A DNA stretch of 63,648 bases, counting the filler, from Reclinomonas americana ATCC 50394 (lineage: Eukaryota), in the NCBI GenBank assembly GCA_048213135.1. It is 5 parts of 4 records of this genome, joined end to end, with 100 filler letters (N's around TTAATTAATTAA, not from the genome) between each part and the next. Parts side by side here need not be neighbours in the genome. Positions count along the whole stretch, not along the records: positions 1 to 26,058 come from PS015013.1; 4 more parts are not named here. One strand, given 5' to 3'. This document shows positions 1-62,929 of this stretch, in pieces. The position numbers and the translations under genes are program-made. The notes beneath the pieces were generated by a model. It searched no databases and was not told where the DNA came from. It saw only the letters and a program-made list of their open reading frames with translations. How positions within the stretch are numbered: the first letter of the stretch is position 1; every line of letters begins with the position of its first letter.

Positions 1-39
1 CTTCCTCCAACTCACTGCACACACACACTCCACACACAG

Positions 40-3000
40 AAAATCGTGCGCGTGTTGGATCACCAACTGACAGTCAAGGGCACTGGGTTTACGACGACCG
101 ACAAGGCGCAGTTTGCGGTCGGTGGACACGGATGCGAGACCGCGGTCGATGACATGGTGGTGTCGACTGTGACGGTGACTGCGGCCGATCCCACCACCAT
201 GGTGGTGGCCATGTTTGCGCATGTGTCGGCAGGCGGGCGCTACTGGTTGTGCGTGCAGTCGCAGGGCATGGGCCCGTGGCTGAATTTCACAAACAGTCAC
301 GTGGAGGTGCTGAGTTGCGTTCGTTTGGACACGCTGCTCTTGTGTCTCTGCTTCTCTTCTTGCTTTGAGGTTCACACGGTGTTTCTTTTTGCGCAGTGGG
401 CATGACGAGCAGCTTTTATCCGCGCCTGCTGGACAACCACGGTCCGAGCATGTTGCAGTTGTATGGCACGGGTCTGCCAATCACCGCGCCGGCGACTGCG
501 TTCCGCTTTATTGATGCCACTGGCGGCAACAACTTTTCGTGCCAGGTGCCTTTTTTTATTTTTGCGCTCCCCTGCTCTCGCTGCGATGCATGTGCTTACT
601 GTGTGCGGCACGCATTCGAAAAAGACCGCGGATCCCAAGCCAGCGATTAACACCATCACCATCACCGCGGTGCCGCAACCGACCGCCGAGCATGTGACGC
701 TGCAGCTGACGCCCACCACCACCTTCTCGGGTCTGGCGTTTCTCTGCGTACTGTGCGTTGTGGTCGATGGGGGTGTGCTGTTGTCGACGGCGGATTGCTG
801 ACTTTTTGAACACAGCTTCCCGGGCATGGACATTTACGAGCCCGCTTCACACGGCGGCGCTGTGCCGTTGCCGATTCACATTACGGAGAACGCCGAACCC
901 ACTCTGACTGGCCTCACGCCGCTGCAGACGAGCCTGTGGTCCTCGATCACTGTCAGCGTGCAGGGCACGCAGCTGAGGTGTGTGTTTCATCGCTTCCCCC
1001 CTTGCCGACAGCCAAGCTGAGCTCGTGACGCGATGCAGCGCGATGGAGGACGTCATTGTCATCAACGCTGTGGGCAACTGCTCGCCGCCCACTGCTTCCC
1101 CGGACTCGGTGGTAAGTATGCACTCCTGTCCGTCATCGTCGTGCAGTGTTTTTCTCACGCTGCTGTCTTTCGCAGATCCAAGGCGTGCCCGACATTGTCA
1201 GCGACACTGCCATTGACTTTATGCTGAAGATCGGCGGTTCGTACAACCTGCAAGTGTGCATCAAGTTCACCGGTCAGGCAGACTACACCATGGTTCCTGG
1301 TGGACCCATTGCGGTGCTCTGTTGCGTTCGCCTCCCTGCGTGTGCACATCCTCTTGTTCTGCCGTCTGACGACGATTCGACTTGTTCTTTTGTTTCACAG
1401 CGCCTTCGGTGAAGACTTTTACGCCGCCGACAATCGCGCCCAACATTCTCACGGTCATCACCTTTACTGGAGACAATCTCGCTGGGTGAGTCGTCTCGCG
1501 GCTGATGTCACTGCTCTCGTCGCCGCAAAAGATCTCACCGCGCATGAGCAGTGGCACACAGCAACTGCTGGTCACCGACGCCAACAACAACTGCGTCGCG
1601 AACTCGGCCAGCATCACGGTCGGAAAGACGGCCGCACCAGATGCCCAGCATCTCACCTTTGAGGGTGCGTTTGCATGCGCTTATTTGTCTTTCATCACGG
1701 CAAGCAGTGCATGACTAAATTCTCCGCTTGTGCAGTGACGACCACGGCCGCTGCTGGCACCAGCTATTCCATGTGCATCAAGTTGCGTTGCGACCGGCTG
1801 CGTGACTCTTGTCACACCTTTAGCGCGTCCAGCTTACCCCGCATGCTGATAATGTAGATACTCTGGCGCTCCGGCCTTCGCCCCGCTGACTGGATCATCG
1901 CTCAAGGTGGCGACGTCCACCCTCACCGGCATCGCGCCGGGACTCGTGTCACTGACTGCGGCGACCACGGTCACCATCTCGGGCACCGTTCTCGGCGGCG
2001 TCACCGACGTGATTGTCATTCAGTCCACACAAACCTGCGCCTCTGGCCAGACGGTCCGTCTCGCCATTTCGCCACTCCCTGTGTCTCTTGTTATCTCGCT
2101 TCCTCCCCCTGACTGGTGTATGTTTGTGCAGCCGCTGGCGCCGGTCACCAAGGTCACTCCGTCTGCAAACCAAGTGACGTTCTCCGTGCAGCCGACCCAG
2201 GCTGGCGTCTACAGCGCATGCGCTCGTCTTGCCACCGGTGCTGCGTACACGGCGGTGCCTGGCACATTCAGTGCTGGCGCCAGCACGAGCGGAGTGCAGC
2301 CGAGCACGATTCCGGTGGTGGCTGTCACCACGATGAGCATCTCTGGCGTGGATCTGGACAACTCGACCGTGCTCACGGTGGTCGCGGCTGGCGAAACGTG
2401 CATGTTCACCAACCCTCCGCCACTTCCTGTTGCGTCTGCCGCCGCCGCCGCTGTGCCCCATCCACCTCCGATCTCCACTCACTGCTGTCGCGTGTAGAAC
2501 GGCTTGCAACTGTCGAACTTTGCCGTGGTCTCGCCGCAGCTGCTCACCATTGGCGTGAGCGCGCCGTTCCCCGCCGCCAACTACAAGTTCTGCATCATGC
2601 TGTCGCCGGCCGGCTACTCGGATGTGACGAATGGCGGCTTTGCGGCCGCGGTGCCGACCGGAACCAAGATCACACCCGATCAGGTGCCGCTCGGCATTGC
2701 TTCCACCGTCACTGTGCTGGGCACGCTGTTCTCGCCGCTGGTGAAGATCTCGGCCGTGCTGCCCAGCGACACATGCGTGACGCAGACGCCCAATACGCCA
2801 GTTTCGTGTGCATCGTGAATCAGTGTGTATGTGCGTGCGTGTTCTCATCTATTGCACGCGACACAGGCGTGGGTCACCATCAACAACCTCATGCTGGTGT
2901 CGTCAAGCTCCATCACGGTCACTGTGCTCGGCCAGAACACTGTCGGCATGGTCAAGTTCTGTCTGCAGGCGTTCCCCAACTCCAACTACATGGATGTGCA

Positions 3001-8002: not shown

Positions 8003-10277
8003 TTAGTACAGTGTGGCATTCCTAAATGACACGAATAATCTCGACGAGCCGGTAAAGTCGACTCCGCGCAGCGTAGCACGCTCAAACGTCGCGTTCTGCA
8101 GGTCGGCATCGCGAAAGGTCGAGTGCGTGAGGATGGCCGCGGAGAAATCGCCGCCAGCCAGCTTGGCCGACGTGAAGTCGCAGTTGACCAGCTTGGCCTC
8201 CACAAACAGACGCCGCTGCTTGTCGTCGTAGCACGCTGTGCGGCGAGGTAGCAGTGAGTCGAGAATTGGCCCGGCGATGGAAGGCCAGTGGGAGAACGCA
8301 CAGAGATCGCAATGTCGAAACGAGACGCCCGACAGGTCCGCGTGACTGAAATTGATGACAGTGAGGTGTCGCAGCTGCAGCGAGCCAAAGGCGGTGGTGC
8401 GGAGGTCGCAAAAGGTGAGCTGCAGGGTGCCACCAGGTGGCGCTTTGCTTATCAGTCGACACAATTCGTCTTGTGCGACCACACTGCGAGTGGCAGTCGG
8501 GGTGTGTGATGCCGACCGAGCCAGTGCCTCCTTTTCGCGGTGCTCCTTGATGCGACGCAGACGACGCCCGACAGCGCGTCGCAGTCCATCCAGAGCAAAA
8601 AACTGCGCCTCCACAAACAGCTGCTTCAGGCAGCGTTCGTCGGTGGGATCGACATCCAGCACGCCTCCGCGGCCATCCACACAAGTGCGCAGGAAGCGCA
8701 AGATGTGGCGAAACAGATCGGGCTCACGATCCAGGAACACCTGCCGCACCACATCGGTGAGTCTCATCGGCGTCGCGCTTTCCATCTCTCCGTTGCCGAC
8801 AAGGAACAAACCCGTCCGTGCGAATCAGTGGCAAGATCGAAGCGACCGGAGAACATGGCGGCGAGCATCGAGTTACCGTCGCGACTCAGCGTGTCGCGCG
8901 AGGTCACAAATGTCTCGCCGCCCACATTCAGCTCCACCATGGTCTCCGACCCCGTTGCCGCTCGCGAACCGCCATTCAACACTTGCACAAAGTGCAGCGG
9001 ATCGGTGGACTCGCACACCGGCGCCAGCTCCTGCATCGTCGTCACGGTTTGAGAGACTGCATCCACAGCCATCACACCACCACGCTCTTCTCTTCTTACG
9101 CAACATCCGGCTCCCACTCCAACTCGTACACCTGCGTGTTGCTCGAGGCGCCACTGTCTCCCCTGCCTCGGCTCCCTGCAGAAGCCGCGGCTGTCGACGA
9201 GGAAGGTGCTCGGCCGGCGGCCACTGCAGCCGCTGCCGCCGCCGCTGCTGCAACAGCAGACGTCGACATGGGTCCACTGCTTGTCGAGCGCGGCCGGCTG
9301 CGCAACGCCCCCGCACCGCCCAGCGGCTGCACATCGTCGCCGACCGACAAATACACCATGTCTGCTTGCCGCATCCGCTCACCGGCCGCCATGGCCGCCG
9401 CCTCCTCCGCCTCCGCCTCGGCCTGTCGGCTCGCATCGCCACCGCTTTCATCGCCATCACCGTTGCCATCAGCAGCAGCAGCAGCAGCAGCACCATAGTC
9501 GTCGTCTGAATCCTCATCGGATCCCGTGCCTGACTCCCACGACGGCGTCGACGGCCGCACAGCAGCCGCCTGTGCACCTGTGACGACAACAGGCTCCTCC
9601 CTGCGTGAGCATCGCGGGTGAGCACAGTGTGTCACTCACAATCCTCCCAACACCAGACGCAACTGGATTGGCGGCGGCTGATGCAGCGGCGGTGGCGGTG
9701 GTGGTGGTGGCAGCGGTGGTGAGGACGGCGAGTGATGCGAAGACAGAGGTCCAGCGGCCGCCACGGCACCAGCTGCGTGATAGCTATGATGATGATGAGG
9801 TCGATGCACACGCGCCGCCGATGGTGGCGACGAGGAGATGGGTGGCATGGAGGCAGCAGCCGCCGATGAAGACGACACAGACATGGCGGAGGCGGAGGAG
9901 GCCTGCGCGGCAGCAGCAGCAGCTGCGGCCGCCACTGCTGCTGCGGCCGCGGCGGCCACCTCATTGCCGGTGACTGCGAGCAGTGCAACCTCGGGTGAGC
10001 TGGCTTCGCGGGGCATCATTGGGCCGCCACGGTCGGGCGGAGGGAATGCGTGGAGTCGACGAGGCCGTGAGCGACCAGCGCCAGTGCCTGTGCCGCCGCC
10101 GCCGCCGCCGCGGTGCTCGTCGTCGTCGTCGTCGTCGTCATCGTCGTCTTCGTCTTCTTCTTCGTAGGGTTCGGTGCTGTCGACGTTGCCGGTGGAGAGG
10201 AAGGAGGCGAGGTCGTCGATACGAGAGGTCAGCTCGATGGAGGGTCGAGGCGCACCCGCTGCATCCTCCCCGCTCAT
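8003..10277 (-). CDS. KCTD/T1-type BTB domain plus pentapeptide-repeat protein (KCTD9/FIP2-like) with long low-complexity N-terminus
   Basis: 'VELNVGGETFVTSRDTL...SMLAAMFSGRF...GR|VFLDREPDLFRHILRFLR' is a T1-BTB signature. The C-terminus has A[D/N]L/F pentapeptide repeats (FSHADLSGVSF, DFTSAKLAGGDFSAAILTHSTFRDADLQNATFERATLRGVDF). Four in-frame introns. Confidence 0.85.
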
Positions 10278-16500: not shown

Positions 16501-19073
16501 AAAAGCAAGGAGACAAACCGCGACTGCAGGTCGGTCAGCGCACGAAGAAGGCCATCAATCTGCTGTCGCATGTCGGCCTCGCGACGCCGTGCGGCCTTGA
16601 GCTCGCTCGTCAGATGTTTTATCTCTTCCTCGGCAGTCTGAGTGCCCTTGCGGAATGCACCTGCGACAGGCGTCGGTCAGTGCATGCGGAGGATGGTCAC
16701 TACGTGCAATGAGAGTGAGCACGGAACGTTCATAATTCGACTGCGTGTAATCCTGAATCTTGCCCATGAGGACGCGCAGTAGCTCAGCGATGCGCACTCG
16801 CAGAGCGGCCACGTCGTGAGTCAGACACTCGCGCTGTTGGCAAGGCGTGAGCGACAGCATGTAATACAATCAGTGGGAAGCACACATAAACACACACCCG
16901 TTGATCGGGATGCAGTTCGTTGTCAAAGTAGGCCACTGAGTTGCTCTCAAAAATGTCCAGTGCGCGCAACAGCATGGTACTCCAGTCCTCCATGGTGAGG
17001 ATCTCTGCGCAACAGCCGTGGTGATGAGCGAACAGCCGCATACTCGGGCAGGGCACTCGCGCCTCACGAACCACCATGCTGAGGCTTCCCAGGCGCGGCA
17101 GGACGACGCGACGCGTGAGCGCTTTGCGAGCGACCGTTGCTGCGTGCCGTACCATTTCCATTGCCAAAGCTGCTCTCACTGTGAAACGACGAATCGCCAT
17201 TGGCTGCCGGTGAGCGGGCTTGCTGTGGCGCTCTCCGTTGGGCCGACGTGGAGCGATGCGCGCTGCGAGACCGGCCGCCACCGTCCTCCGACAGAGCCTC
17301 TGCTTTTTTCAACCCCACCACCATGTGAGACAAGCGGTAGGAAGCAGTGTGCCACACGCGCGACTCACCAGGTGGTGGTGACGAACGCGCGGACGACGAA
17401 ATCGTGCGATATCTGCAACCACCACCACCAATGAGACACTCGCGAGTGCATTGTCAAAGAGCGGACACGATGGCACACACCGTCGCTGCGATGCGGACAA
17501 GTCCAGCTTGTGGCGCTGCTCCTCCTGCTGCGCGAGATCCTGCGCCCGGGCCAAGGCTCGCGCCATGCTGCAAAAACAGGGCCCGGTGCGCAGCGGGTGA
17601 GCGNNNNNNNNNNNNNNNNNNNNNNNNNNNNNNNNNNNNNNNNNNNNNNNNNNNNNNNNNNNNNNNNNNNNNNNNNNNNNNNNNNNNNNNNNNNNNNNNN
17701 NNNNNNNNNNNNNNNNNNNNNNNNNNNNNNNNNNNNNNNNNNNNNNNNNNNNNNNNNNNNNNNNNNNNNNNNNNNNNNNNNNNNNNNNNNNNNNNNNNNN
17801 NNNNNNNNNNNNNNNNNNNNNNNNNNNNNNNNNNNNNNNNNNNNNNNNNNNNNNNNNNNNNNNNNNNNNNNNNNNNNNNNNNNNNNNNNNNNNNNNNNNN
17901 NNNNNNNNNNNNNNNNNNNNNNNNNNNNNNNNNNNNNNNNNNNNNNNNNNNNNNNNNNNNNNNNNNNNNNNNNNNNNNNNNNNNNNNNNNNNNNNNNNNN
18001 NNNNNNNNNNNNNNNNNNNNNNNNNNNNNNNNNNNNNNNNNNNNNNNNNNNNNNNNNNNNNNNNNNNNNNNNNNNNNNNNNNNNNNNNNNNNNNNNNNNN
18101 NNNNNNNNNNNNNNNNNNNNNNNNNNNNNNNNNNNNNNNNNNNNNNNNNNNNNNNNNNNNNNNNNNNNNNNNNNNNNNNNNNNNNNNNNNNNNNNNNNNN
18201 NNNNNNNNNNNNNNNNNNNNNNNNNACACTCGCGAGCAACGTCACCCCCGAGCGCAGCCGCCTTCTCACGGCCGTGAAGGAGTTGGGAATGGTCGATGGC
18301 GACGTGCTCAGTCAGTACATTCGCTCGGTGAACTTGGCCTCGGTGGCCGCCGCCAATGCCAATGTCTCTGCAGCAGCGGCGGCGCAGAACACGTCACTGG
18401 GATCGGCCTCATCTCCGGGCACGGGAGGAGCGCCGGCGTTGAGCGCGCGGCGGGCGTCGCCCACGTCACCGCGAGCGCGGCGTTTGAACGGCGTCGCGGC
18501 GGCGCCGTTGTCCATTGACACGTCGGCTGCGGTGCAGCGTGACTTGTTTACGTGCGTGCTTCTCTTTTGTGTGGTCAACTCTCTTTTGCGTGGAGTGAGC
18601 TCATTGGTGGATTGCATTGCAGCAAATTGTTCTCGCAGCAGACGTTTTCGACCCAGATCAAGCACCAACAGCAGTCGCCGCAGGTGCATCAGCAGCAGCA
18701 GCAGCAGCACCATTATCAGCAGGCGAATGGCACCGCAGCGGCCGTGGAACCGTCGCCAAGGTCTGTTTCTCTGTTGGTTTGTTGTCTAGTTTTTTGTTTG
18801 TTTNNNNNNNNNNNNNNNNNNNNACCGTTGCCGCGCAGGGATAATGAGGCGTCTTTAGCGAGCGAGCGAGAGAGAGAGAGAGAGTGAGCACACGCACAGA
18901 GAGGGGTTCGGACGATCACACACACACACACCACTTGAGGCGGGTGTGCTGGCGCTGCCATGACTGGCCACGATGAAAGGAGCGAGTTGTTGCTCAGTGG
19001 AGGGTGGAGGGGGACGCAGGAAGGGTGCGAGGGCGTCGGGAGAGACACCGCCGGGCCTCTGTGAAGTGGCCAT
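13536..19073 (-). CDS. Large low-complexity protein with coiled coil, E/R/K single-alpha-helix region and one WW domain (gapped; part on inverted contig 18226-18803)
   Basis: WW motif 'GWKEAFAPNGDKYFYHTGTREVAWSLP' (about 14765-14850). 'EEEARRRKAEEEERQR' SAH tract at about 15440-15840. Coiled coil 'EEEIKHLTSELKAARRREADMRQQIDGLL'. ATG at 19073 (MATSQRPGG), TAA at 13536. Confidence 0.65.
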
Positions 19074-19245
19074 GGCCCGCTGCTCTTTTTTTCTTTCTCT
19101 TGTCACTCACTCACTCACTGACACGCTGACACTCACTCACACAGTGGACACGATCACACAATCACAATCACAAACGAAGAGAGATGTCGGGAGACGGCGT
19201 TCTCTCCAGGTGCGAGGGAGTCGATGAAGATTACAGTTCACTAAT

Positions 19246-20518
19246 TTACAGAAACCGACGATTGAACAGAACGCCGCGAGTGTGCTTGTCTGGAGGCATC
19301 TCGACCAGACTCGGATCGCAAGTCATGGATTTGGTAATGTCGACCGGCTCGTTGCCGTCTTCGCCGACGTCGACGTCGTCGTTGACGACCAGCCAGTCGC
19401 CGCGCTGCTTCATCAGGGCGATCTTCTCCGAGGCCACTCGCAGGTAATTGTAGTGCAGCATCACTGGCTCCGCCTCGGCCTCCAGCAGGTGCCGCTCGTA
19501 AATGTCCTCGTGGAGAATGTGGTAGTGGCCGGTGGGGTAGAGCAGCGGCGGCAGGATGCACACGCGTGTGCGTTTGGTGTCGCGCACGTCGTCGCCGCTG
19601 GTGGCTGCCGCGATTGCGACGGCGGTGGTGGCGGTGGGCGTGTTGTGTGTCCAGTCGCGCACGTGAACCCACAAGTCGCGGCGGTCGCGCATGATGCGCT
19701 CGAGAATGGGTTGGTTGAGATCGTCGCCGGTGCGAATGCCCTCGGCCCACGCTTGCATCAGGCGCATGGCGCGCGCCGAGGAGCCTCGCATGAGCCACAG
19801 GCCGGCGCAGAGAGGGTACGGCGATGGCGTGGCCGCAGTGGGTATGGGGTTGGTGGGGTGCCGATGATCCGACTGCACCATCCAGTCGCACACATACGAC
19901 GCGTCATCATCGTCCGCCGGCGACACAAACGTCGCCACCGTGGGCCGACCACGCGGGAAGTCACTGGTAAAGTGCCGTCGCACTGCCATGTCGGGGTCGA
20001 CATGCAGCACCGAGTAGCCATACGACAAGATGACCACGAGAGCCTCCCACCGCTGCGTCACAATCGAACGATACGCCGCCGAACCGTACTCGCTCGCATG
20101 CTGCTCGCCCAGCTCACTCGCCGTCGGCGGCACATAGTGCACCACTCCGCGTCGCGCCAGAAAGTTCGCCATGCGACTGTCCAGCGCAATCACCAACACC
20201 TGCGACTCCACCCACCGCTCCAGCTGGCACAGCAGGTTGAGCACCATGGAGCGGAATGCAAAGTTGCCCTCGGTGACCACCAGCGGCCGATCGCGACGGA
20301 ACTCGCTCTCCACCAGCGCACGCAGCCCTGACCATGGGTCTTCATTCGCAGACGGCGCCTCTGCTGTGTGGAGAGAGAGAGAGAGTGAGTGGTGAAGGGA
20401 GAGATGAGTGGAAGAGTGCGCAGTGTTTACCTTGCGGCTCTGCAGCGCATGCGAGTGTGGCGCCCAGCAGCAGCACGAGCAGTAGCAGGAGCACGAGCGC
20501 CCTTGCTCTTCGCTGCAT
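19246..20518 (-). CDS. Nucleotide-diphospho-sugar transferase (GT77/Nucleotid_trans-like) with N-terminal signal/anchor
   Basis: Exon 1 is MQRRARALVLLLLLVLLLGATLACA. The large exon 2 has the DxD motif 'GYSVLHVDPDM', 'LCAGLWLMR', 'DLNQPIL' and C-terminal 'HYNY...EKIALMKQRGDW', typical of this family. Confidence 0.75.
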
Positions 20519-20594
20519 GCTTGCGTGAGAGTGTGTGTGTGGTTATTCCGCTCGCGCGCGACAATGTTTGTTCGCCCCCTGCTCTCCCTTCAGA

Positions 20595-21061
20595 ATGACC
20601 AAGATCTCCACACACGTTCTCGACATCTCCCGCGGCTGCGTGGCACGCGGCATTCGCGTAGACCTCGAGCGAATGGATTCCTCTGGCGCCTCTTCTTCTT
20701 CCTCCTCTTCCACTGGTGATTTCGTGCTGGTCGGCAATGGAGTCACCGACGACGATGGTCGCGTGCGTGTGTGGAAGGGCGACAGCAGTGAGGCCGGCAG
20801 TGGTGCTGCAGGTTGCGTTTTCTTTCCCACCCCTCTGTGCATTCGTTTGTGTGTGTGTGTGTGTCGGCATTGATGACAATGGTGATAGATGGAACGACGT
20901 ATCGCCTGACGTTCCACACGGGTGAGTATCTGGCGGCGTACGTGGAGCGTCCGTTCTTCCCGATTGTGCAGCTGGTGTTTGTGGTGCCGAATGGGCAGCA
21001 GCACTATCATGTGCCGCTGCTGCTGTCGCCGTTTGGATACTCGACCTATCGGGGATCGTAG
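20595..21061 (+). CDS. URAH: 5-hydroxyisourate hydrolase (transthyretin-like)
   Basis: N-terminal 'ISTHVLD', 'TDDDGR', and C-terminal signature 'HYHVPLLLSPFGYSTYRGS*'. One intron starting at 20812. Confidence 0.93.
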
Positions 21062-21201
21062 TGCGATTGTCGATGGTTGTTTGCTGCTGCTGTGGTGACG
21101 CGTCGAATGCAACAATTCACTGTTTTCACTTGTGTGCTTTTTGACAATGGGGATGGCGATGAGAGACTGCCTTGTGTGTTGTTTTTTCGCTTCTTGTTTG
21201 A

Positions 21202-23993
21202 TCACAGCAAGTTGCAGTCGTCTCCCTTGTCCTTGCGCCTCTGCTTCTCCAGCGCCTTCATCTCGTCCTTCGTGATCTGTGGTGTGTGTCGCGCTTGTGA
21301 GTTATCGAGTGGAGGACGGGGGCTTCGAGGGCGCGGCGGGAACGCACCTGTCGACCTTCTTGTCGTGCGCGATGCTGCAGTTCGGCCAGGCGCCGCTGAT
21401 GATCCTGTGAAAAGGAAGCGATGAGTGAGGGAAGGCACAGCACTCGACGCAACGGGCGCACACATACCTCCTCCGCACGCTCATCCTGCCCGCACATCAA
21501 TGGCATACACAACAGAGTGAGAAACAGGTCCTCTAAGGCAAAGCGTGTGGAAAGATCACACAACACACACCTGTGACATGTTGCGACGACGGCGATGCTC
21601 CTGGCGCGCCTCCTGCTCCTCCTCGTACTGCAGCCGCCGTGCCAGCTCCTCGTCCGTTCTGCGAGAGAGACAGAGAGCGATAAGCAGATGCGGAGACACA
21701 GATTCCGTCTGCCGCGCGGCGCAACTCAGGGCCGGCGGGGTATTGCGGCGGACGATTGTAGTTGGGCTGGTGACGCGGATCCACAGCCTGCACATATGCC
21801 GATGTGGGATGCGCCGGATGCTGCGGGCCAGAGGACTGAGCGGGTGCCTGCTGCACGAACCAAACGAGGGGTGAGTGAGACGGAGAGGCGGCACAGCGGT
21901 GTGTTCCTTGCGTTGAAACACACACCCCGTGATGCTGTTGCAGGCTGGCCACGAATCCAGGGCCACAGTACTGATTGTTGCCGCTGACCTGCGCCACAGA
22001 GGAGGACGCGACTCACTTCAGTAACGCAGTCGAGCAAATATGCTCTTGTTTGAAATACGCAACATTCTCAAACAACTCCCACATGACGTCGGGCGCATCG
22101 AGGAAGCCAACATCGGTGGCCAGCAAGTACAGCCGACCGTGGAATTTGTACATGGTGCTGAAGTGATTGTTGCGGAAGAACACGGCCATTTCCGTCTGCG
22201 GCGAAAAAATGGATGAGTGTTGAGCGGCTGGCGATGAGAGAGACAATGCGCACCTCTCGCACGAGGTCCTGCAGCGCGCCAAGACCCCATTGTGTCAACT
22301 GACTCGCCGAGGCCTCCAGGAAGCTGTTCAACAAGTCGGCTTCGTACACCAACTGTTCCCTCTGCTCCTCTGTCATGCCTTGCGGTGGAGGTCCATCTGG
22401 GCACACGAGAGTTGGGCACTCACACACACACACACGAACACACGCACAGAGAGAGAGGTATGTAAAAGACGCACCATGCCGCAGACTTGAAGCGTTGATA
22501 ACCTGCTCCACCACTTGGTTGTAGCTCTTGTCGCCAATGATGCGCTTCAGCTCTTCGTTGGTGGGATCCACCACCCATCCGTGGTACAGGTTGATGCCCA
22601 TCATGTCGAACACGTCCATCTGCGACGTGTACTCAAAGTCCGACGGACTGTGCATGCCAAGTAAGCAATGCGAACAAAAACAGACGGCGGGAGATCCAAC
22701 AATGAGGGGGCGGACCTGCGGAAGCGCACATTGACGTCGAGGCCGCGGAGGAGCATGGGGAAGTGGCCAATCACATCCGACAAGTGCTCCACAAAGCCCG
22801 GCTGTTCTTGTTGCTGCACGCGACATGCGATGAGATCGAGAAAAAATGAAGCAACGTACTGGAAAGATGATGGCGGCACAAACCCTCTGCGTGTGTCTGA
22901 ACATGTAGTCGCCGAGTGTCTCGAGCAGTTCGCGCGCCGAAATCATCGAGATGTCGGAGTGGATGGAGATACACCGAGCCAGGAGGAGACCATTGGCTGC
23001 ATTGCCACCGTCAGCCACATCATCACAGATACATCACGGTCATCGCAAGCCATCACTCACCCAGTGCCTGATTGTCGTAGTCGACAGAAGGAGGAAGAGA
23101 AAGAAGGGGGTGAGCAAGTGACACAATAAGAGGGAATCACGGAAGGCCGGCTCACTGTGACAGCACACAACACACGTCAGTCAAGCAGCAGAACACAAGG
23201 CGGCGACCGCGCAAATGTCACTCACTGCACCGACAAAGGCGCGTGAGTGAGCAACACAATCACACCACGGACAACTTCTTGCCACTCAATCACTCACCCC
23301 AACAAAGGACACGGGCCGTTCTCATTCTGCAGCACTGCAAGCAGCAACACGCAGACCACCGTGAGCCAACCCAACAACACGCACACATCGCCACACTCAC
23401 AATCATCGAACACGCACCAATCGACACCGGTTGCCCGTGGAACGAGGTCCGCTTCAGGTGGAACATACTCTCGCCTCCCGACATGGGAGCCGGTGGCGCC
23501 GCACCAGCCGCCGGCACTGCTGCGACTGGAGGCGGCGGCGGCGGAGGCGGCAACAACACTGCCCAACACTTTATGAGCACACACACGCAGACGGACAGAC
23601 GATTCTCTCTTAACAAATACCTTGCTGCGCCTCCTGCTCGGCCACTGCGGCCGCCACCGACGCATCCTGCTCGACTTGTCGCTGCACACTGGCGGGCGAC
23701 ATGAGACCCGGGTGGTGTTCCCGCTGCACAGCGGCCTCTGACACAATCACTGGTGCAGGAGGTGGCACTGGATGTGCTTCTTGTGCTGGTGGAGGTGGTG
23801 CTGCTGCTGCGTGATAGACAGGAGCGGCGATCACCTCTGCAGCTGCTGTGTGTCACAGAGCGTGTGTGTGTGTGAGAAATCGTTTGACAGGAACATCATC
23901 TCGTGTTGTTGTTTTCACGCAACGATGTGCGGCCACGACTTCTGTGGCGAACGGCGGCAACATGTCGTCATCTGCGACGACTGGATGCGACAT
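21202..23993 (-). CDS. MINDY1: MINDY-1/2 family K48 deubiquitinase (FAM63/DUF544) with MIU motif and C-terminal CaaX
   Basis: Catalytic Cys motif 'QNENGPCPLLALAN', 'GLDVNVRF', 'LYHGWVVDP', 'SASQLT', catalytic His 'VFFRNNHFSTM', 'LYLLATDVGF', MIU 'DEELARRLQYEE', and ends 'DCNLL*'. Confidence 0.93.
23068..23299 (-). other. Complex intervening sequence: three nested spliceosomal introns (double [D1,2] stwintron)
   Basis: Minus strand reads TTG|G G GTGAGT..73 nt..GTGCAG TGAGT..TCACAG TGAGCC..ATCAG|GCACTGG. Only sequential excision restores the frame PCPLL-ALAN. Confidence 0.8.
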
Positions 23994-24309
23994 TGTGTCT
24001 GCGCGTGTGTATGTAAGAGGAGGGAGGGGGACAAGTCGGTGAGCGCGCGCGAGAATACACAACAACAAAGAACATCGCGAGTTGTACTCACGTGTGACTC
24101 TGTGTGAGTGAGTGAGTGTGAGAGGGAGGGGTGTGTAAGGTGCCTTGCGTGCGCTCGCTGACTCGTCACTTCGCGGCCCTTCGCTGCGGGAGGATTGTGA
24201 CAACGACAAAATTTCATCCTCTTGTGTAGATTTGGCGTTTTACATTCTCGCGTTTCTCTCTCTCTCTCCCCGCTTCTCTCCTCGTTGGCTTTCACACGAG
24301 CCGTACATG

Positions 24310-25286
24310 TTACATCACGGCGCCCTCGTTGAATCGATCTTCGCAGAAAATAAGTTGCTGCACCAGTGATAAAAAGCCGGTGTTTTCCGGTCCTGTATCA
24401 GTCAGGCAGGAAATCGGTGAGTCGATGGGGTTACATAGCAGCATGTGTGGCGTGTGGCGCCGTACCGACAGCCTGCACGAGTGCGTCCGCCACTTGGTCG
24501 TCGTCGTCGGTCGACTGCAGTCTGTGCAAGACGTAAGAAAATGTAAGGATCGCATGACATGGCTCGCGAGGTAACTCTTTGAGAATGCGGTAGGCTTGGA
24601 AGAACGCGTCAAAGCCAAGGTTGTCCTCGAGTAGCACGCGCAGCGCCTCGATGCGATAGCAGAGGCTGTCCTGGGGGGTGACACTCGGTAGACGCAGTGT
24701 GGCACCGTCCAGCACGAAGCGGCCGAGACCATCGGTGGGTGGTGTATCGGCTACATCCACATCGTCGTCTTCCTCGATATCCGAGGCAGAGGCCGATGGA
24801 CGACCGGCCACGGTGGGGGCGGTGGCCACCGACGAGCTGTTGGCCGACGACTTGGGACGAGAGGGCGCGGAGCCCCATTCTTCGTCGCTGGACTCGGTGT
24901 CCTGTTCGCTCATGCCCAGCACGCCTCGCAAACTCGCCACCATTTGCTGGTACTCCTCGTCGTCCGTGTTCAGCACCTCATCCGTGTCTGCATAACAACG
25001 CGTGTAAGCAGCGCGAAAGAAAGAAACATCAGGCAGCAAACGAACCAGGTGCGCTCACAGCCTCGTCGTCGTCGGCGGCCGAGAAATCTTCGTCCTCGTT
25101 GAACACATCGGCTGCAGCAGGTGCCTCCGCAGCGGCTTCAGCTGCCGCGGCTGCCGCCGCCGCCGCCAGCTTCACTCCACGCATGGACTCGGCCATCATG
25201 GCGCGCGAAAACGTCGCACCCAGGTCCAATGGAGCCGCCGGTGCCGCCGCACTGAAGAGCACACGTGAGCGATATGTACTCACGAG
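24310..25286 (-). CDS. C-terminal part of a probable NEK1/NIMA-related kinase-like protein (kinase domain not in window)
   Basis: 'DSLCYRIEALRVLLEDNLGFDAFFQAYRILKE...LVQQLIFCED' resembles the conserved NEK1-type C-terminal helical domain. Three in-frame introns. Confidence 0.55.
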
Positions 25287-25306
25287 NNNNNNNNNNNNNN
25301 NNNNNN

Positions 25307-42536: not shown

Positions 42537-44630
<2,094 letters not shown>

Positions 44631-44926: not shown

Positions 44927-45971
44927 TCAGGTGCTGATGATTCTCAGACCCTCCTTCAGGTCGCGGACCACCTCGTTCATGGTTCGCACAATCTCCTCCT
45001 CGGCGGCCTCGCGTTCCTGCATGACACACCGGTGAGGACGCTGTCCGCATCAAATCTCTTTCCTCTCTCCTTCCGGACGACTCACATTGTGCTCTGCCCT
45101 GAGCTCCGAGCGCAGCAGTGCAATCTGATCATTGATGTGTGTCTCGAGCAGGCGCTCACGGTCCTCACGGACGCGGGCCTCTCGCTGCACATCCGACGCA
45201 ATGCTCTCAATGTGCGTCAACCGACCCGTCTCCTCGTTGCGCAGCGCCTCCTGGATCTGACCCACGACCGAACCCAGTCGCTGCAACGAATTATCCAGCT
45301 CCTGCCGACTCGACGCCTCAAACTCCAACAGCGTCTGCAGCTTCGACACGCGCTCCTCAAACAGCGTCGCCGTGTCGGCAATCGAGTGCTGCCGAATCGT
45401 CCGCTCATCGCGCAGCTCATTCTGCAACACACAAGACCGCAGTCAGCGAGGAGGCGCAGCAGCACAGTGACGCGAAGCAGCAGCAAACCTCGAGCACACC
45501 GACGCGATGCGTCAACACATCGACAGCAGCGCGCAGACTCGACAGATTGCCTGCGCATGCATCAGTTCCAACAGCGTCCTCTTACGCAAGCACATTGCAC
45601 AGCGCGCGAGTGTTACCTTCTGTGCGATCAATGGCCTCCAGGAACATCTGCTTGAGCGTCTTGTCGGACTCGGCACGCCGCTCAATCTCCAGCGCGAGGT
45701 TGCGATCGTTTTTCTGACCACCACACAGCGTGAGCAACAACGGGAAAGCGATAAGGGAGGAGACGCGCGCGCGCTCACCAAGCACATCTCTCGCAGCAGA
45801 CTGCTCTCTGTGGTGCTGATCGACTCCTTGTTCTCGTGCTCATACCTGCGCAGGGAAGTGAGAAAAGAAGCGCTCAAACCGTGCGCGGAAAATCGAGCAA
45901 CGCACCGCAGCTGCGACGTGAGCGACGACACCGACGTCTTGATGCGATCCAGACGCTCTTGTGTCGGCGAG

Positions 45972-61104: not shown

Positions 61105-62169
61105 TTTTCTAATTCTACGAGAGAGAAAGGAGGGTTGTTGGGGACTTGTTTTTCTATGCTCACGGGGGAGACGAACTGTAGGTGTGAATGAAGCTGACGC
61201 CGCCAAAAAACTTTTATCAATTCTTCCGATGCGATCATAATATGTCCACAAGTCCAGATGTACATGTGTTTCTCCGTTGTCGAAGAGCTGCTGGCCGTAG
61301 ACGCAGCTCTCGCTGCGCTCGACTACAGTGCATGCCAGTGTAGGGCAGTGCGTCTTTGGATGCTCGTCTACCCGGTCGGGCAGCAGTTGCGCACAGCAGA
61401 TTCAGAGATTCTGCGTCTCTCTCGCGGTCTGCATTCTCGCAAACCGTACACTTGCAGTATTGGTTTCTTAACAGGTGGCTGGCCGACGAAGGATGTGGCA
61501 GTGAGCGAGTGCCACGAGTGAGCATGTCGCGACTGATGAAGCGTTGCCTTGGTGTGTGTGGGAGTGGTGTGATTACAGTGGGGCGTGTTCGCTGCGGTTC
61601 GTTTCTGCTTCGAACATTGCTGGTGTGGGAACAAACAACACATTCATTCACCAACAAACAAGCAACAGCTGTCTTGATGACCAAGTTCAACCACATCCAA
61701 AACATCAACACAAACACCAATGTTGAGGCAGCAGCAGGTTCCTTGTGCGTCCGAACACGTCGAGAACTGCGAACTTCACCGCATCAGCGTGGTTGACCAG
61801 TGGATTTGACGCANNNNNNNNNNNNNNNNNNNNNNNNNNNNNNNNNNNNNNNNNNNNNNNNNNNNNNNNNNNNNNNNNNNNNNNNNNNNNNNNNNNNNNN
61901 NNNNNNNNNNNNNNNNNNNNNNNNNNNNNNNNNNNNNNNNNNNNNNNNNNNNNNNNNNNNNNNNNNNNNNNNNNNNNNNNNNNNNNNNNNNNNNNNNNNN
62001 NNNNNNNNNNNNNNNNNNNNNNNNNNNNNNNNNNNNNNNNNNNNNNNNNNNNNNNNNNNNNNNNNNNNNNNNNNNNNNNNNNNNNNNNNNNNNNNNNNNN
62101 NNNNNNNNNNNNNNNNNNNNNNNNNNNNNNNNNNNNNNNNNNNNNNNNNNNNNNNNNNNNNNNNNNNNN

Positions 62170-62284: not shown

Positions 62285-62929
62285 TTTTCTAATTCTACGA
62301 GAGAGAAAGGAGGGTTGTTGGGGGCTTGTTTTTCTACGCTCACGGGGGAGACGAAACTGTAGGATGCTTTCTGATGTGGCAGGTGTCGCCTTTTATGCTC
62401 CGGCGTGCCCGGGATAATCACACGCGCCCCTCCGCCTTGACGGAAGAACATTCACAGTTAATATTCCGCGATTGCTGACCGTAGTCGCAGCTCTCGCGCG
62501 CGGCGCTCGACTACGATGATAGTGTAGGGCACTGCATACGCATGTCTTCTGAGTCTTTGGCATGGTCGTCGTCCACCGGGCTGTGGCCACCCACGTGCAC
62601 GTGCACGGTCGGGCAGTAGTTGTCATGCAGATTCAGAGATTCTGCGTCTGAAATCTCACAAACCGCACGCGTACAGTATTGGTTTCGGTGCCGGTGGCTG
62701 ACCGAAGAAGGGGGTGGCAGTGAGAGAGTGCCACGAGTGAGCATGTCGCGACTCATTTGTGTGTGGGAGTGGTGTGATGACAGTGGAGCGTGTTCGGTTC
62801 GGAGGATTTGTCAGGCATCCAGTTGTCATTGTGAGTGCGTGCAGTTGTCTTCTAGATGTGTGTTATTCTTCATTCATTAATGATTCTGTCTATATATGAT
62901 TACATAGATCTCGCACGCGCTTGGTGGTG

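Follow-up and report, generated by a model that had tools for sequence, protein, structure and literature searches.

The stretch of DNA analysed here, 63,648 nucleotides (nt) of the genome of Reclinomonas americana ATCC 50394 (assembly GCA_048213135.1; hereafter the window), encodes on its minus strand a deubiquitinase of the MINDY type, the coding sequence of which is interrupted beside the codon for the putative catalytic cysteine by an intervening piece of 232 nt that starts with GG. From the arrangement of splice signals in this piece, and from the conservation of the protein on either side of it, we think it probable, though by no means assured, that the piece is a complex spliceosomal intron of three nested units, akin to the [D1,2] spliceosomal twin introns (stwintrons), in which one intron separates the G that opens the donor of another from the U behind it. 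The gene was modelled by homology as follows:

21202..23993, minus strand: MINDY-type deubiquitinase gene, 16 coding exons, 1563 nt, 520 codons
23993-23991, minus strand: ATG start codon of the gene
21204-21202, minus strand: stop codon of the gene

The original prediction had taken this gene for a MINDY deubiquitinase, and the identification is borne out by domain matches, by colinearity with the best relative and by the likeness of that relative to solved MINDY structures. Stop-to-stop open reading frames (ORFs) from the locus match PF04424 (MINDY_DUB) with E-values of 1.1e-27 and 2.3e-17 and with scores (97.5 and 63.6 bits) that exceed the cut-off of 27, and the exon at 23334-23300 holds the QNxNGPCP motif. 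A HMMER search of 1.84 billion representatives recovered 1066 relatives at E <= 1e-3, the best of them being P0002, a protein of 552 amino acids (aa) with 42-48% identity. When the model minus its first exon, with exon borders that had themselves been guided by P0002, was compared with this protein by blastp, the two were colinear (E 6e-112, 209/496 identities) and ungapped across the region of the catalytic Cys. The full coding sequence is free of internal stops over its 520 codons. P0002 in turn matches the solved catalytic domains of human MINDY-2 and MINDY-1 (E 1.8e-53), the alignment with MINDY-2 extending over the Cys motif; the Cys of the GPCP motif is the one that we take, after the MINDY-1/2 literature, to be catalytic. 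A lookup for an annotated protein of the locus gave a single match in the length range, and a distant one, and scans of a prokaryote contig collection with exact 30-mers and peptide patterns found no second copy of the locus. The predicted protein ends in C-N-L-L (21202-21216, minus strand) and P0002 in C-V-L-L, CaaX-like termini that could mean prenylation.

The intervening piece and its surroundings comprise the following features, and all the coordinates that the original prediction had given for the site were reproduced:

23300..23334, minus strand: 35-nt exon coding for (V)LQNENGPCPLL and ending ...TGT CCT TTG TTG, with the TGT Cys codon at 23311-23309
23068..23299, minus strand: intervening piece of 232 nt, starting GG
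23298..23299, minus strand: two spare G that follow the exon end and precede the first GT, the proposed first donor bases of units 2 and 3
23225..23297, minus strand: unit 1, the innermost, 73 nt, GTGAGTGA...CTCACTCAC...GTGCAG
23155..23224, minus strand: body of unit 2, 70 nt, TGAGTGAC...CTGAC...TCACAG, which with G 23298 makes a GT..CAG intron of 71 nt
23068..23154, minus strand: body of unit 3, 87 nt, TGAGCC...CTCAC with a pyrimidine tract...ATCAG, which with G 23299 makes an intron of 88 nt
23061..23067, minus strand: 7-nt microexon GCACTGG, coding for A and L and, with its last base, opening the codon of the next A
22997..23060, minus strand: ordinary intron of 64 nt, GTGAGTGA...CTGAC...TGCAG
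22884..22996, minus strand: next exon, coding for (A)NGLLLARCISIHSDISMISARELLETLGDYMFRHTQR and beginning CCAATGG

The piece holds exactly three CAG trinucleotides, all of which are proposed acceptors and two of which precede TGAG, with AG ends at 23225 (GTGCAG/TGAGTGAC), 23155 (TCACAG/TGAGCC) and 23068 (ATCAG). Branch-like motifs are present in all three units on the same strand (CTCAC at 23251-23247 and 23247-23243, CTGAC at 23180-23176, and CTCAC at 23114-23110), lying 19/23, 22 and 43 nt from the respective CAG, and each CAG is the first AG 3' of its CTCAC or CTGAC motif. The octamer GTGAGTGA opens unit 1, unit 2 (taken with its G) and the intron that follows the microexon, and occurs at the start of 0/21 other canonical introns; the microexon itself is flanked by CAG upstream and by this octamer downstream. 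In total, five intron units break up the 42 coding nt that surround the catalytic Cys. As the original prediction had pointed out, the two spare G equal in number the donors that lack a G, and we reasoned that a locus with none or only one of them would offer no productive, in-frame three-unit route.

The mature junction can be read from the protein family. Among the best 150 of the 1066 relatives, from which the family statistics were drawn, 97 carry a G[PS]CP motif, and the six positions that follow it in these 97 read L89 / L56 I37 V3 / A84 S10 / I69 L16 V7 / variable / N96. The product of the nested route is L-L-A-L-A-N, and P0002 reads L-L-A-V-A-N. The family motif, GPCP-L-[LI]-[AS]-[ILV]-x-N, thereby fixes the proposed junction TTG^GCACTGG^CC, which gives GPCP-LLALA-N, and the 7-nt microexon is required because A-[ILV]-x must precede the invariant N. 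Direct use of the GT at 23297 with the acceptor at 23068 indeed leaves two G behind, as had been claimed, and meets a stop 26 codons after GPCP; retention of one G leads to a stop 83 codons after it. We further listed all combinations of at most three GT/GC..AG introns, sequential and not nested, that can be placed from the Cys codon to the N codon. This search gave 208 in-frame, stop-free paths, of which four have the family spacing and none fits GPCP[LMFIV][LIVM][ASG][ILVMA].N; one canonical path does hold the frame, but with a non-consensus peptide. The correct ORF would thus depend on consecutive excision of the kind that defines stwintrons, 0/208 sequential paths giving the family motif.

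On the three-unit reading, unit 1, an ordinary short GT..CAG intron (23297-23225) inserted behind the opening G of the next donor and ahead of its U, would leave first, whereupon G 23298 would meet UGAGUGAC and form the donor GUGAGUGA. Unit 2, now 71 nt, would then leave up to the CAG at 23155, bringing G 23299 to UGAGCC and so building the donor of unit 3, and this unit of 88 nt would leave up to the CAG at 23068. The product, ...CCU UUG UUG/GCA CUG G/CC AAU..., would code for the conserved helix that follows the catalytic Cys. At the level of cDNA, the mature messenger would read ...CCTTTGTTG^GCACTGG^CCAAT..., and the intermediates would have junctions of the TTGG^GTGAGTGAC and TTG^GTGAGCC types, or be represented by the product of an early removal of unit 3. 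Alternatively, unit 3 might go out first or second, in which case G 23298 would supply the middle unit with its donor G, the first base of the microexon would serve as its acceptor G in an [A2,3]-type step, and the mRNA would be identical. We infer that splicing proceeds in this manner in vivo, aided by 5'-to-3' co-transcriptional intron definition.

The properties by which stwintrons are recognised can be traced through these steps. Unit 1 has a donor, a branch element (CTCAC, twice) and an acceptor of its own within 73 nt, and unit 2 has the same complement once unit 1 is removed (GTGAGTGA...CTGAC...CAG, 71 nt). In silico, excision between G1 and U2 creates a canonical donor on both occasions, from G 23298 with TGAGTGAC and from G 23299 with TGAGCC. 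The combination that marks [D1,2]/[A2,3] pairs, namely an overlap of one G and the same mRNA by both routes, is found for units 2/3 and not for units 1/2.

Splicing was then simulated under the rule that a GTGAG donor is joined to the nearest CAG 50-100 nt away. Three excision orders proved productive (units 1, 2 and 3 in turn; unit 3 before unit 1 and then the middle unit; and unit 1 before unit 3 and then the middle unit) and two were dead ends. In the unspliced RNA a GTGAG donor also arises from the G of each internal CAG together with TGAG. Unit 3 can therefore be removed at any time, since the G of its preceding CAG and the TGAG already form an intact donor, and it is readable as 23155-23068 by borrowing that G. 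Similarly, the middle unit can borrow an acceptor G because the microexon starts with G. On the other hand, an excision of the middle unit that starts at G 23225 while unit 1 is still in place leads to a dead end because unit 1 loses its acceptor. The obligatory, inside-out order that the original prediction envisaged is thus upheld in one part, in that unit 1 must precede the middle unit, and given up in the other, unit 3 being free and three orders being productive. The rule that unit 1 goes first is one that 5'-to-3' co-transcriptional splicing would favour. The further suggestion that mis-ordered splicing has a regulatory role is pure speculation.

To gauge how readily such a nest, defined as three units of 55-95 nt each, arises by chance, the interior of the piece was subjected to 20000 dinucleotide-preserving shuffles. 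None of them (0/20000) gave a nest with CAG/TGAG or YAG/TRAG at both internal junctions, 509/20000 gave one with CAG/T at these junctions, and 3335/20000 did so with NAG/T. The strong GTGAG form of the nest is far beyond chance; the minimal form is not very rare, because this genome uses degenerate donors. The window contains 29 CAGTGAG sites as against 17.5 +/- 4.6 in shuffles, and most of the 29 look like chance or coding matches. A scan of the whole window for [D1,2] pairs with strict donors returned the MINDY site alone, compared with 0.0 in 30 shuffles. With relaxed donors the scan also gave a hit at 61426 (plus strand), which was set aside as unconvincing, lying as it does in a repeated, apparently non-coding segment. 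At the very edge of the window (1-90, minus strand) there is a possible [D1,2]-like site at 17, reading ...GTGTGCAG/TGAGTTGG with a G/GTGATCC donor about 56 nt upstream, which is cut by the window end.

The background against which the piece has to be judged is provided by the ordinary introns of two genes, the second of which is the following:

42624-44630, plus strand: aspartate aminotransferase gene, 9 exons, 407 aa, 55% identical to P0153 (E 1e-172)

The 14 ordinary introns of the MINDY gene measure 78, 62, 83, 64, 70, 68, 78, 58, 75, 75, 67, 85, 63 and 71 nt, and those of the aminotransferase gene 285, 73, 73, 65, 80, 72, 64 and 71 nt, all of them GT..CAG; the longest, at 42702-42986, has no internal CAG. 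Pooled over both models, 21/22 canonical introns span 58-85 nt, one has 285 nt and 22/22 are GT..CAG, so that the original description of the 73-, 71- and 88-nt units as normal in size for this genome holds good. The donor repertoire is unusual, with GTGCGT in 7/22 and GTTGCG in 5/22 and thus C or G at +4/+5 in place of the usual GTRAGT; sites with such donors are 23923, 22063 and 21725 on the minus strand and 43279 and 44420 on the plus strand. Internal CAG trinucleotides number three across 13 MINDY introns and five across the 8 aminotransferase introns. The 2718 exonic nt of the two models need no frameshift (0), despite 71 runs of at least three identical bases and eight of at least four, which argues against frequent indel errors in the sequence. 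The aminotransferase is about equally similar to 120 relatives from fungi, animals, plants, green algae and Naegleria (median identity 52.6%, maximum 58.4%), and this flat profile suggests a poorly sampled lineage.

Several observations weigh against the three-unit reading. Its support is made up of sequence logic and protein homology, and it comes from a draft, gapped scaffold, though the interval 18823-25287, in which the gene lies, is free of gaps. The existence of a canonical intron of 285 nt puts a single intron of 230 nt within range. GTGAG is found in just 2/22 canonical donors, the remainder being degenerate (GTGCGT, GTTGCG, GTGTGT and others), CAG followed by T is present within 4/8 aminotransferase introns, and the minimal CAG/T nest turned up in 2.5% of the shuffles. 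The motif of unit 3 lies 43 nt from its acceptor, compared with 14-33 nt in 12/13 of the MINDY introns examined. The arrangement would also be costly, because 2/5 excision orders are dead ends, and the 58 kb of sequence in the window contain no second convincing stwintron.

The most serious of the rival explanations, to which we give perhaps one chance in four, is that the two spare G are a sequence artefact, or else a very recent insertion of 2 bp that has just inactivated the gene, and that the true or ancestral sequence was TTG/GTGAGT followed by one GT..CAG intron of 230 nt, the internal CAG/TGAG sites being coincidence. The draft state of the scaffold (26 runs of N, amounting to 5506 N) and the position of the extra bases inside a run of G speak in its favour, as do the 285-nt ordinary intron nearby, the CAG trinucleotides that ordinary introns also hold (3 in 13 in the MINDY gene and 5 in 8 in the aminotransferase gene) and the lack of another stwintron in the window. 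If this were an assembly error, the finding would be of no interest. Yet the error would have to be a rare one, of +2 in a run truly two bases long, and to fall exactly there, whereas the 2718 exonic nt of the two gene models are without any frameshift. An error of +1 would rescue the frame in neither model. Two CAG/TGAG junctions with branch motifs would have to have arisen by chance at intron spacing, which happened in 0/20000 shuffles, and the size of the error would have to match the number of G-less donors by chance as well.

Considerably less probable is a conventional parse without nesting, in which 236 nt are removed from a GTTGGG donor at 23303 up to the CAG at 23068, a microexon of 11 nt follows at 23067-23057, and a GTGATG donor at 23056 is joined to 22997. 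It would show CCTTT^GCACTGGGTGA^CCAAT junctions and yield GPCP-LHWVT-N with the family spacing preserved. This is the sole GT..CAG path that holds both frame and spacing, and GTTGCG-like donors are used by 5/22 canonical introns. However, H and W are found in 0/97 relatives at the second and third positions behind GPCP, where they would replace two near-invariant residues and spoil the active-site helix; the L, A, L of the consensus, encoded by the genome in the other register, would have to be a coincidence; and the path skips two GTGAGTGA donors that are much stronger, at distances of 6 nt and 4 nt. Removal of the piece in one step as a GG..AG intron, whether by cleavage shifted relative to a U1-bound GTGAGT or as a non-conventional intron of the euglenid/diplonemid type, agrees with the GG..AG borders and with a predicted fold more stable than shuffles (-79.4 vs -66.5 +/- 4.35 kcal/mol, z -2.96), but can hardly be entertained when the other 22/22 introns are GT..CAG, a U12-type donor is absent and the 5' end is predicted to pair with the CTCACCC that unit 3 carries some 40 nt before the 3' end, and not with the 3' border. 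The excess stability is accounted for by the complementarity between GTGAG donors and CTCAC branch motifs, each the reverse complement of the other, and donor-branch pairings are seen in the predicted fold of 23068-23299 (minus strand). The euglenid/diplonemid possibility in particular was rejected, as the helix that would join the intron ends is absent from the predicted fold and the other introns are all GT..CAG.

As to how a three-unit nest might have arisen, comparison of the three units with each other gave local scores within the null, and no other copy of them was found in the 63-kb window. A recent tandem duplication, or an introner burst of the 'sister' type, is consequently disfavoured within this scope, because the units are dissimilar and have no copies. 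The recurrence of GTGAGTGA would fit a local duplication of the donor, by analogy with what has been proposed for Lipomyces in PMC7138796. Probably the arrangement came about neutrally, by intron gain or by duplication of a donor at a single place, and is not a device. A bolder version, which we regard as improbable, is that the lineage stacks short introns by repeated gain or donor duplication at the G/T of the donor, and that order-dependent splicing acts as a kinetic gate on MINDY expression; were this true, the 2/5 orders that are dead ends would yield frameshifted or unspliceable RNA.

Should the three-unit reading be true, an active-site segment that looks essential can rely on the order of splicing for its correct expression, and similar structures may arise wherever intron definition operates on short introns. 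This would weigh the more in a host outside the fungi. There is also a practical side, in that standard gene finders cannot model the locus and would either truncate the gene or choose the frame-keeping but wrong path through the 11-nt microexon.

A few further features of the window may be recorded. Two repeat copies of about 250 nt (61330-61600 and 62540-62800, plus strand) share long identical stretches and are apparently non-coding. An ORF at 8006-8824 (minus strand) combines a BTB_2 domain with pentapeptide repeats (Pfam E 7e-7 and 1e-14), a pair that resembles the KCTD9-type proteins. A weak match to SF-assemblin/beta-giardin at 45053-45442 (minus strand; E 1.8e-5, below the curated cut-off) hints, if real, at a flagellated organism. 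The segment 46813-49025, around two large gaps, has a low GC content of 0.35-0.44 and a strong A skew, the gene-rich parts having 0.57-0.60. No Rfam family was matched in the window.

Among known systems, recursive splicing through ratchet points resembles the proposed pathway in its stepwise removal with a regenerated 5' splice site. At ratchet points, which serve very long introns in Drosophila and vertebrates, the AG is followed by a full GT (AG/GTAAGT). The MINDY piece was not classed with them: its sites are CAG/TGAG, with a GT only by way of the acceptor G, its total length is 232 nt, and the G of each rebuilt donor would come from the upstream spare bases.

Closer parallels are found in fungi. 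The complex intervening sequences of Lipomyces ([D4,5], [D6,7] and [D7,8]) are described in PMC7138796 as nests of two U2 units at one position, and their authors propose an origin by donor duplication within an existing intron. The MINDY piece is similar in having nested U2-type introns at one position and in the recurrence of GTGAGTGA. The Lipomyces sequences differ in having two units, in being interrupted later in the donor or after it, and in that some can be removed in one step. In the alternatively spliced [D1,2]/[A2,3] stwintron of the DHA1 gene of Trichoderma reesei, according to PMC5587772, a pair of internal introns has one G in common, and the mRNA comes out the same whichever of the two is excised first. 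Likewise, units 2/3 of the MINDY piece share G 23155, the next exon starts with G, and both routes would lead to the same product. Unlike DHA1, the MINDY piece adds a [D1,2] level in the form of unit 1, for which there is no [A2,3] alternative, and its downstream exon is only 7 nt long.

The nearest counterparts are the [D1,2] stwintrons of ascomycetes, studied in Aspergillus, Hypoxylaceae and Xylariaceae by Flipphi, Fekete and co-workers. According to PMC12403724, the stwintrons that have been identified in ascomycetes, and validated there, are nests of two U2 introns and nearly always of the [D1,2] kind; when they are mis-spliced, one intronic G is retained and the frame is lost, and they involve short introns and intron definition. 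The MINDY piece would share with them the short introns, the position of an internal U2-type intron between G1 and U2, and the rebuilding of the donor. The original prediction held that higher-order nests had been described in fungi; this found no backing in a keyword search of several stwintron papers, which gave neither a three-unit nest nor a non-fungal stwintron. Those papers from a full-text search that describe stwintrons concern fungi. The MINDY piece differs from the ascomycete cases in its three proposed units and two successive donor rebuilds and in being known here from its sequence; moreover, its units are mutually dissimilar, unlike those of 'sister' stwintrons, and the organism shows no close affinity to fungi. 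The mechanism itself would have a precedent, as both [D1,2] stwintrons and one-G-overlapping [D1,2]/[A2,3] pairs are reported as experimentally shown in ascomycetes in PMC12403724 and PMC5587772. Set beside those stwintrons, which the papers cited here describe and validate solely in ascomycetes and always as two nested units, a three-unit nest in the MINDY gene would show that donor-rebuilding splicing can iterate.

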